Source of the DNA: Escherichia coli
GTDB taxonomy: Bacteria > Pseudomonadota > Gammaproteobacteria > Enterobacterales > Enterobacteriaceae
NCBI RefSeq assembly: GCF_044324875.1
Contig: NZ_CP172185.1
Strand: one strand, 5' to 3'
Length of the DNA: 64,000 nt
In this document: one piece after another, positions 40,889 to 43,031 of the stretch
Layout of the letters: each line of letters starts with the position of its first letter
How positions within the stretch are numbered: the stretch's first letter is position 1
Made by a program: the position numbers and the translations under genes
Notes under the pieces: generated by a model
Database searches by the model: none
Seen by the model: only the letters and a program-made list of their open reading frames with translations
Told to the model about the DNA's origin: nothing

Positions 40889-41067
40889 CTGACGTACACA
40901 TCAGCCCGTAATCTTTTTTGATTGCCATCACCTTAACGGGTGAGGGCGTTGTTGTTCGTTAATACACCTACTTTGAGCCGGTTCACACTTTTCAATGAAA
41001 ATTGCTGATCAATTTCATGATGAGTTATGTAGACTGGCCGCCATTAATTTTGAGGCACACGTACTAC

Positions 41068-42957
41068 ATGGCTGAATTCGAAACCACTTTTGCAGATCTG
41101 GGCCTGAAGGCTCCTATCCTTGAAGCCCTTAACGATCTGGGTTACGAAAAACCATCTCCAATTCAGGCAGAGTGTATTCCACATCTGCTGAATGGCCGCG
41201 ACGTTCTGGGTATGGCCCAGACGGGGAGCGGAAAAACTGCAGCATTCTCTTTACCTCTGCTGCAGAATCTTGATCCTGAGCTGAAAGCACCACAGATTCT
41301 GGTGTTGGCACCGACCCGCGAACTGGCGGTACAGGTTGCTGAGGCAATGACGGATTTCTCTAAACACATGCGCGGCGTAAACGTGGTTGCCCTGTACGGC
41401 GGCCAGCGTTATGACGTGCAATTACGCGCCCTGCGTCAGGGGCCGCAGATCGTTGTCGGTACTCCGGGCCGTCTGCTGGACCACCTGAAACGTGGCACTC
41501 TGGACCTCTCTAAACTGAGCGGTCTGGTTCTGGATGAAGCTGACGAAATGCTGCGCATGGGCTTCATCGAAGACGTTGAAACTATTATGGCGCAGATCCC
41601 GGAAGGTCATCAGACCGCTCTGTTCTCTGCAACCATGCCGGAAGCGATTCGTCGTATTACCCGCCGCTTTATGAAAGAGCCGCAGGAAGTGCGCATTCAG
41701 TCCAGCGTGACTACCCGTCCTGACATCAGCCAGAGCTACTGGACTGTTTGGGGTATGCGTAAAAACGAAGCACTGGTACGTTTCCTGGAAGCGGAAGATT
41801 TTGATGCGGCGATTATCTTCGTTCGTACCAAAAACGCGACTCTGGAAGTGGCAGAAGCTCTTGAGCGTAACGGCTACAATAGCGCCGCGCTGAACGGTGA
41901 CATGAACCAGGCGCTGCGTGAGCAGACACTGGAACGACTGAAAGATGGTCGTCTGGACATCCTGATTGCGACCGACGTTGCGGCCCGTGGCCTGGACGTT
42001 GAGCGTATCAGCCTGGTAGTTAACTACGATATCCCGATGGATTCTGAGTCTTACGTTCACCGTATCGGTCGTACTGGTCGTGCGGGCCGTGCTGGCCGTG
42101 CGCTGCTGTTCGTTGAGAACCGTGAGCGTCGTCTGCTGCGTAACATTGAACGCACCATGAAGCTGACCATTCCGGAAGTTGAACTGCCGAACGCAGAACT
42201 GCTGGGCAAACGTCGTCTGGAAAAATTCGCCGCTAAAGTACAGCAGCAGCTGGAAAGCAGCGATCTGGATCAATACCGTGCACTGCTGAGCAAAATTCAG
42301 CCGACTGCAGAAGGTGAAGAGCTGGATCTCGAAACTCTGGCCGCCGCATTGCTGAAAATGGCACAGGGTGAACGTACTCTGATTGTTCCGCCAGATGCGC
42401 CGATGCGTCCGAAACGTGAATTCCGTGACCGTGATGACCGTGGTCCGCGCGATCGTAACGACCGTGGCCCGCGTGGTGACCGTGAAGATCGTCCGCGTCG
42501 TGAACGTCGTGATGTTGGCGATATGCAGCTGTACCGCATTGAAGTGGGCCGCGATGATGGTGTTGAAGTTCGTCATATCGTTGGCGCGATTGCTAACGAA
42601 GGCGACATCAGCAGCCGTTACATCGGTAACATCAAGCTGTTTGCTTCTCACTCCACCATCGAACTGCCGAAAGGTATGCCGGGTGAAGTACTGCAACACT
42701 TTACGCGCACTCGCATTCTCAACAAGCCGATGAACATGCAGTTACTGGGCGATGCACAGCCGCATACTGGCGGTGAGCGTCGTGGCGGTGGTCGTGGTTT
42801 CAGTGGCGAACGTCGTGAAGGCGGTCGTAACTTCAGCGGTGAACGCCGTGAAGGTGGTCGTGGTGATGGTCGTCGTTTTAGCGGCGAACGTCGTGAAGGC
42901 CGCGCTCCGCGTCGTGATGACTCTACCGGTCGTCGTCGTTTCGGTGGTGATGCGTAA
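41068..42957 (+). CDS. deaD: Cold-shock DEAD-box RNA helicase DeaD/CsdA
   Basis: ORF 41002..42957; start at Met of [21 protein letters not shown]... (629 aa); motifs AQTGSGKT and DEAD, RG-rich repeated C-terminus. Confidence 0.94.
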
Positions 42958-42999
42958 TCATCGCTGAACAGCGAACACAATCTGTAAAATAATATATAC

Positions 43000-43031
43000 A
43001 GCCCCGATTTTTACCATCGGGGCTTTTTTTC
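43000..43031 (+). terminator. Intrinsic terminator after deaD
   Basis: ccccgat-ttttacc-atcgggg hairpin followed by cttttttt. Confidence 0.8.

Follow-up and report, generated by a model that had tools for sequence, protein, structure and literature searches.

The repeat array and in-frame length alleles of the predicted disordered C-terminal tail of the DEAD-box helicase DeaD in Escherichia coli

Introduction

The DEAD-box helicase DeaD (also called CsdA) from Escherichia coli shares with the dimeric DEAD-box helicases Hera, from T. thermophilus, and CshA the same order of elements, namely a helicase core, a dimerisation domain, an RNA-binding domain and a C-terminal tail. In Hera and CshA, RNA is anchored mainly by the RNA-binding domain, and constructs devoid of the tail are active (PMC11850223). 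A passage of the same article, summarising Xu 2017, describes a CsdA construct without its C-terminal tail as an active ATPase and helicase. As to the role of this extremity, the C-terminal extension has been proposed to form a secondary non-specific RNA site (PMC1616957), and the basic C-terminal domain has been put forward as the site of an ATP-independent annealing activity (PMC3590231). DeaD has also been reported to form liquid-like condensates, with phase separation both in vitro and in cells (PMC12758526).

A similar organization is found in the helicases RhlE1 and RhlE2 from P. aeruginosa, for which PMC11260450 reports C-terminal disordered regions that shape the function of the helicase and make phase separation possible; as in DeaD, a fast-evolving disordered extension is appended to a conserved DEAD-box core. 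However, these proteins belong to another helicase subfamily and their tails display no sequence homology with that of DeaD. A parallel can also be drawn with the eukaryotic proteins Ded1/DDX3, DDX4 and Dbp2, in which a condensate-forming DEAD-box ATPase bears an Arg/Gly-rich disordered segment punctuated by aromatic residues.

Both deaD and its disordered tail thus belong to textbook knowledge, and a Pfam model of the tail exists. The present work adds a population census of the length alleles of this tail and an analysis of their junctions. We found no report of deaD tail length alleles in the literature searched, our searches being hampered by the fact that "dead" is an ordinary word. The analysis started from a window of 64,000 nucleotides of E. 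coli DNA, in which an earlier note had pointed to tandem repeats at the 3' end of the gene.

Materials and Methods

The sample consisted of 5,426 complete E. coli genomes, among which the tail is present in 5,425. Length variants were searched for with strict E-value megablast, which reports only co-linear alignments; the preliminary extension fails at gaps of at least 12 bp, as we confirmed locally. In-frame deletions and duplications between short direct repeats had been enumerated beforehand, and 50 junction-centred synthetic alleles served as a panel. Wild-type alleles gave no match to this panel, and a reduced panel of 37 segments gave the remaining matches; both were validated by local simulation. 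One representative sequence was read per variant class, which in the +15 class was that of genome H212 among 48, the others having the same match pattern. Orthologues were retrieved by a protein search with the RNA-binding domain and the tail; the sequences obtained, mostly fragments and for many of them frameshifted, were used for unit counts.

Results

The gene and its product. The open reading frame found at 41068-42957 on the + strand (629 codons plus a stop) encodes the E. coli cold-shock DEAD-box helicase DeaD/CsdA. Pfam domains, RefSeq annotation and a translation check all concur on this point, and the full domain architecture bears out the gene name given in the earlier note. The RecA-like core is composed of the domains DEAD (aa 30-196, PF00270, E=3e-52) and Helicase_C (aa 232-340, PF00271, E=2.5e-32), and is followed by DeaD_dimer (aa 374-443, PF25399), DbpA (aa 489-558, PF03880) and DeaD_C (aa 568-629, PF12343), each of these three scoring over its cut-off. 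The structures 5GI4, 5GJU and 5B88 of the PDB are those of DeaD fragments identical to our query. The gene order nlpI-yrbN-deaD-mtr was recovered both from the open reading frames and from the RefSeq annotation of the matching E. coli loci, all matching records naming the gene deaD and giving nlpI/yrbN and mtr as its neighbours. A strong hairpin terminator, scoring on both strands, lies 3' of deaD at 43000-43031 (AGCCCCGAT...ATCGGGGCT followed by a T-run). Directly upstream of the tail, the DbpA-type RNA-binding domain is encoded at 42532-42741 (+); besides Pfam, it is documented by the structure 5B88 and by an AlphaFold model with a beta-alpha-beta-beta-alpha-beta fold (pLDDT 65-77).

Composition and disorder of the tail. 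Pfam entry PF12343, entitled "DeaD helicase C-terminal disordered region", matches aa 568-629 from end to end (model positions 1-62 of 62) with 45.7 bits for a cut-off of 23.3, and the tail encoded in the window is a member of this family that shows no difference in kind. Arg and Gly, with 19 residues each, make up 60% of aa 565-629, which also contain 7 Glu, 4 Asp and 4 Phe and bear a net charge of +8. No chain of the PDB covers this region: the solved fragments of 5GJU, 5GI4 and 5B88 together comprise residues 6-210, residues 218-445 and the RNA-binding domain and end by residue 564, and the RNA-binding domain seen in 5B88 finishes with ...LLGDAQ, one residue ahead of the tail. In the AlphaFold model, built on an alignment of 32 sequences, the tail (residues 79-144 of the modelled piece) is entirely in coil with a pLDDT of 44-50. 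The tail is predicted to be intrinsically disordered, that is, devoid of stable secondary or tertiary structure.

The tail had previously been described as RG-rich, which is loosely right as a description but does not hold in the formal sense. RGG/RG motifs are defined by two or more RGG, or three or more RG, separated by spacers of 0-4 residues. A regular-expression search of aa 565-629 revealed no tri-RGG, di-RGG or tri-RG pattern; the only matches were RGGGRG at aa 572, a di-RG, and one isolated RGG. In contrast to the eukaryotic RGG/RG domains, the DeaD tail is a polyampholyte rich in Glu and Asp, and arginine methylation is, to our knowledge, not to be expected in E. coli.

Anatomy of the repeat array. 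The array spans 42766-42915 on the + strand, within the last 65 codons of deaD, and consists of four units, all in frame, whose starts are 33, 33 and 45 nt apart. Unit 0 (42766-42798, aa 567-577) is a degenerate first copy; it holds a 15-nt micro-unit, GGCGGTGAGCGTCGT (42769-42783), that encodes GGERR and has TGGCGGTG on either side, at 42768 and 42783. Unit 1 (42799-42831, aa 578-588) and Unit 2 (42832-42876, aa 589-603) have cores, ttcagtggcgaacgtcgtgaaggcggtcgt at 42799-42828 and ttcagcggtgaacgccgtgaaggtggtcgt at 42832-42861, that encode the same peptide, and the 11-aa peptide of Unit 1 differs in K-12-like alleles. Unit 3 (42877-42915, aa 604-616) opens with tttagcggcgaacgtcgtgaaggccgc from 42877, which encodes FSGERREGR. 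Then comes the C-terminal end of the tail (42916-42954, +, aa 617-629), which is kept in every length variant whose sequence was read.

The head-to-tail arrangement of the units is also detected by Tandem Repeats Finder, which reports a period of 33, 2.9 copies and a score of 113 at 42770-42864, its array starting at 42770 inside Unit 0. An exact 10-residue peptide repeat was reached in only 1 of 20,000 shuffles that kept the composition of the tail, and the in-frame DNA self-match in 1 of 3,000 codon shuffles. The array exceeds what the composition of the tail would lead one to expect, and we reject chance low complexity. The earlier note had located repeats coding for the DeaD tail at 42799-42903, where the sequence is indeed as it described. 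It had counted three near-identical units with a period of about 30 nt, which leaves out the degenerate fourth unit upstream; the period amounts to 33 nt from Unit 1 to Unit 2 and to 45 nt from Unit 2 to Unit 3, and Unit 3 departs from the consensus then given at its 3' end.

Three direct repeats of the region are of special concern for what follows, all on the + strand. An exact repeat of 18 bp, GGCGAACGTCGTGAAGGC, occurs at 42805-42822 in Unit 1 and at 42883-42900 in Unit 3; one of 12 bp, GGTGGTCGTGGT, at 42787-42798 and 42853-42864; and a direct repeat of 8 bp, GCGTCGTG, at 42777-42784 and 42909-42916. They form the junctions of deletions of 78, 66 and 132 bp, respectively, the last of which removes the entire array.

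At the DNA level, the pairs of units are 73-87% identical with longest exact runs of 8-18 bp. Between the cores of Units 1 and 2, 4 of 30 nucleotides have changed, all four changes being synonymous (P ~0.004 under random substitution), and the longest exact identity is 8 bp. This purely synonymous divergence, together with so short an identity, indicates that the duplication is old, that it has not been homogenised and that the peptide read in the deaD frame is under selection.

Census of the length alleles. The tail is co-linear with that of the window in 5,184 of the 5,425 genomes (95.6%). In the other 241 (4.4%), the tail has gained or lost at least 12 bp without a change of frame, in 11 size classes ranging from +30 to -132 bp; the co-linearity test is blind to indels below ~9-12 bp, so that small indels and frameshifts stand outside these counts, which are moreover counts of genomes and not of independent events. 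The panel matched exactly 83 genomes, i.e. 241 minus 158, and the class counts sum to 241. The comparison of copy number across deaD alleles, which the earlier note had called for, therefore refutes an identical copy number in all strains.

The commonest class, with 158 genomes that look clonal, is a +12 bp allele in which REGG is duplicated in Unit 1 (633 aa). The next one, +15 bp, contains GGERR twice (634 aa); its 48 genomes also look clonal and apparently represent an ST361 clone, several of them being labelled ST361 or "361". The same micro-unit is present three times in the +30 bp allele (639 aa, 2 genomes) and absent from the -15 bp allele (624 aa, 2 genomes), so that GGERR exists in 0, 1, 2 or 3 copies. 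Most of the variation is thus of sub-unit size, +12 for REGG and +/-15 for GGERR. Small losses were also found at -12 bp (625 aa, 3 genomes, two different junctions) and at -21 bp, where GRAPRRD is lost (622 aa, 1 genome), and one whole unit is lost in the -33 bp allele (618 aa, 1 genome); the alleles seen in a single genome, namely -33 in K56-43-un, -21 in p10A and one of the -12 in WP2-S18-ESBL-07, could be assembly errors. Two units are lost in the -66 bp allele via the 12-bp repeat (607 aa, 3 genomes) and in the -78 bp allele via the 18-bp repeat (603 aa, 21 genomes), and the -132 bp allele has lost the entire array via the 8-bp repeat (585 aa, 2 genomes). Each class is a multiple of 3 nt and retains the C-terminal 13 aa.

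Apart from that of genome H211, which has a complex -12 allele, every junction read coincides with a direct repeat of 5-18 bp, either perfect or bearing a single mismatch, that belonged to the set enumerated beforehand. The two longest exact repeats, of 18 and 12 bp, yield the deletions that were found in two SNP backgrounds each.

Expressed as F-x-GERREG units, 5,398 genomes (99.5%) possess three, 1 possesses two, 24 possess one and 2 possess none; a whole-unit gain, i.e. more than three such units, was seen in none of the 5,425 genomes. The copy number differs among strains, as in a VNTR, at a low frequency that makes it a poor typing marker. The idea that these repeats are prone to copy-number change is thus supported by the 27 genomes that have lost one, two or all three units, and tempered by the dominance of the three-unit state and by the lack of any whole-unit gain.

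Controls within the gene. When an identical 261-bp test was applied to the helicase core, 0 of 5,425 genomes showed a length variant. The Arg/Asp-rich linker located between the dimerisation and RNA-binding domains (42418-42513, +, aa 451-482), which had been noticed earlier as a second repeat block at about 42420-42510, is real. It comprises the direct-repeat families D2 and D4 and a two-copy DRGPR repeat with a spacing of 24 nt (42430-42453 and 42454-42477, with GACCGTGG at 42436 and 42460). The same test detected 11 length variants of this block among 5,425 genomes, 6 of the 11 falling in a lower identity band (80-90%), and the one that was read, H321, has lost exactly one 24-nt DRGPR unit. 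The comparison of 241 variants in the tail with 0 in the core and 11 in the Arg/Asp-rich block identifies the tail as the indel hotspot of deaD.

The tail in orthologues. C-terminal fragments of orthologues contain about 25-30% Arg and 20-30% Gly, often end with ...RRRFG(G)DA, and hold 0-4 strict GERREG units. Klebsiella-type tails display four units and a doubled APRRDD, those of Serratia, Yersinia and Proteus are degenerate, and the Plesiomonas tail is made of a different repeat, GDRPRGDRPPRRE. One orthologue fragment shows the REGGREGG doubling that is also observed in E. coli. Since the number of units varies across orthologues, gain and loss of repeats are the normal mode of evolution of this tail. 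The E. coli tail differs from those of Hera and CshA: it is a mixed-charge Arg/Gly/Glu array whose units are limited to Enterobacterales relatives and vary in number.

Discussion

We propose that a 33-nt unit of 11 codons gave rise to the tail through ancient tandem duplications; four units remain today. The peptide of the unit would have been held by selection, with drift at the synonymous sites. The repeated use of CGT, GGT and GAA codons has generated many short direct repeats, with 5-18 bp of exact identity and spacings of 12-132 bp, and replication slippage between close copies probably creates occasional variants, as the anatomy of the junctions suggests. Because all the repeat spacings are multiples of three, as expected for a repeat at the codon level, the products are in-frame; the indels would then be tolerated because the tail is disordered. 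The outcome would be an allelic series of low frequency in natural populations and not a programmed switch. Junctions at close direct repeats of 5-18 bp, with the longest repeats giving rise to recurrent alleles, are equally those of RecA-independent slippage and of bacterial in-gene VNTRs; in deaD, unlike in those systems, the mechanism is deduced from junction anatomy.

As for function, the tail could serve as a non-specific auxiliary module for RNA contact, annealing and self-association, placed outside the catalytic machinery. Turner et al. in 2007 reportedly observed that CsdA shortened at its C-terminus sustains growth at moderately low temperatures but not at the lowest ones. We consider it highly probable that a slippage-tolerant, disordered and basic auxiliary RNA-binding tail accounts for our observations as a whole. 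On this basis, the tail would tether RNA or contribute to condensates, the length variants would be nearly neutral and the exact length of the tail would be of little consequence. The retention of three units in 99.5% of the genomes, together with the conservation of the peptide between units, could equally mean that the loss of a unit is mildly harmful.

One would also wonder whether the repeat number is a selectable dial, by which the allele series (0-3 F-x-GERREG, +/- REGG, 0-3 GGERR) sets the valence of Phe/Arg "stickers" and hence RNA tethering, RNA affinity or condensates according to the lifestyle of each lineage, the variants being locally adaptive. The concentration of frame-keeping variants in the tail and their absence from the core would agree with such tuning, as would the two SNP backgrounds found for -78 and again for -66, the +15 allele that marks a successful clinical clone, the fixation of different unit numbers in other genera, and the dose-dependent influence of DeaD condensates on dormancy (PMC12758526). 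If this were true, the recurrent -78 and -66 losses, the +15 fixed in the ST361 lineage and the +12 of the 158-genome clade would be adaptive for cold growth, ribosome assembly or dormancy. However, nearly all genomes keep three units and none has gained one, the common variants look clonal in a manner consistent with hitch-hiking, and mutation bias would by itself lead to recurrence at the longest direct repeats; we thus regard adaptive tuning as unlikely. Less plausible by far is a phase-variable contingency locus, in which frequent slippage would turn DeaD off and on again or exchange one form of it for another. Such a locus would account for tandem repeats in a coding region and for length polymorphism among strains, but it supposes that a change in length shifts the frame or the promoter spacing. 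Here every spacing between units is divisible by 3, and the 11 classes are without exception in-frame with the C-terminal 13 aa kept, so that nothing is switched off. Moreover, the units share limited DNA identity and short exact runs, 95.6% of the genomes are co-linear, and four laboratory derivatives of one parent as well as several outbreak sets share a single allele. We did not retain this reading, to which we give hardly any credence.

The length variants could also be errors made in sequencing or assembling a stretch that is repetitive and rich in GC. Many database fragments do have frameshifted VVKVV... tails or chimeric joins, and three of our classes are represented by one genome each. 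Nevertheless, the major classes are each supported by many independent complete assemblies (158, 48 and 21) that different laboratories produced, variants share the RefSeq protein accessions WP_001306022.1 and WP_005001325.1, every class is in-frame, and the core yielded 0 variants by the identical test. An artefact is thus rejected for the major classes and is very improbable as a general account. It could be argued, finally, that the functional element is at the level of DNA or RNA, for instance an antisense gene, an sRNA derived from the 3' end or a structured 3' region of the mRNA, and that the peptide repeat is incidental. An antisense open reading frame of 110 aa does span 42648-42980, and the strong terminator follows deaD at 43000-43024. 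Yet a search of the region against Rfam gave no family near threshold, the best match (24 bits for a gathering score of 54) being located in the terminator; the antisense frame mirrors the CGT/GGT codon periodicity and is unannotated in the RefSeq records read; and the differences between units are synonymous in the deaD frame, which shows selection on the DeaD peptide. Both the antisense gene and the RNA element were rejected on these grounds, and the chance that they matter here seems negligible to us.

The slippage-tolerant auxiliary tail that we favour is of modest overall significance. For annotators, it is relevant that this repeat is a hotspot at which short-read and metagenome assemblies suffer frameshifts and mis-joins. 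For the biology of DeaD, no other part of deaD approaches the tail in length variability, the core having 0 variants against 241. The natural in-frame allelic series, which includes a tail-less DeaD in clinical isolates, could be used to relate valence to RNA binding, annealing and condensates.

Sequence and length variation in the RG-rich tail

Residue 579 of DeaD, in unit 1 of the repeated tail (window 42802-42804), is a serine (AGT) in the window, whereas K-12-like alleles have a glycine (GGT), so that their unit 1 and unit 2 peptides are not identical and differ at this position. Strain ETEC1738 displays 100% identity to the 261-bp tail query taken from the window.

In the +12 allele (H58, record L001), the inserted copy of REGG, a stretch duplicated within unit 1, differs from the other copy at a single synonymous site, GGT versus GGC. 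On the basis of this difference, the duplication is either old or the product of template switching, from a stretch resembling unit 2 to one resembling unit 1 or the reverse, instead of simple slippage. The one 12-bp deletion allele that lacks GFGG, that of strain WP2-S18-ESBL-07 (H211, record L007), also carries substitutions close by (GGTCGCGAGCGT). It is a complex event, with no clean repeat-to-repeat junction.

Genomic context of deaD

At its 5' end, the deaD ATG (41068) is overlapped by the 26-codon ORF of yrbN (40995-41075), which is annotated by RefSeq (record L002). A 651-aa ORF in the mechanical ORF list begins at a TTG (41002), upstream of the annotated deaD start, and so is too long. 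Opposite deaD, the minus strand contains an ORF of 425 aa (41422-42699) and another of 110 aa with RRSPLK repeats (42648-42980). Both are mirror images of the periodic CGT and GGT codons; in the RefSeq records, deaD is the only gene annotated at that stretch. Between deaD and mtr there is a GC-rich hairpin with a 9-bp stem and T-runs (43000-43031), which has a terminator score on each strand; a weak sigma-70-like site is found at 42965-42993.

deaD in genomes and databases

In the E. coli genome searches, one deaD match came from a sequence record with a plasmid label, two deaD places were found in one genome, and a single genome among the 5,426 complete ones gave no match. Among the protein-database fragments of the DeaD RNA-binding domain and tail, signs of frameshift or mis-joining were observed in P0006, P0007, P0033, P0040, P0042, P0046, P0047, P0053, P0057 and P0112. 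The VVKVV... endings of many fragments are frameshift translations of the RG tail. In two fragments, the GGERR of the tail runs straight into DVGDMQLY, with which the RNA-binding domain starts; the common GAACGTCGTGA probably caused this mis-join. The deaD repeat looks like a hotspot of assembly errors in short-read and metagenome data.
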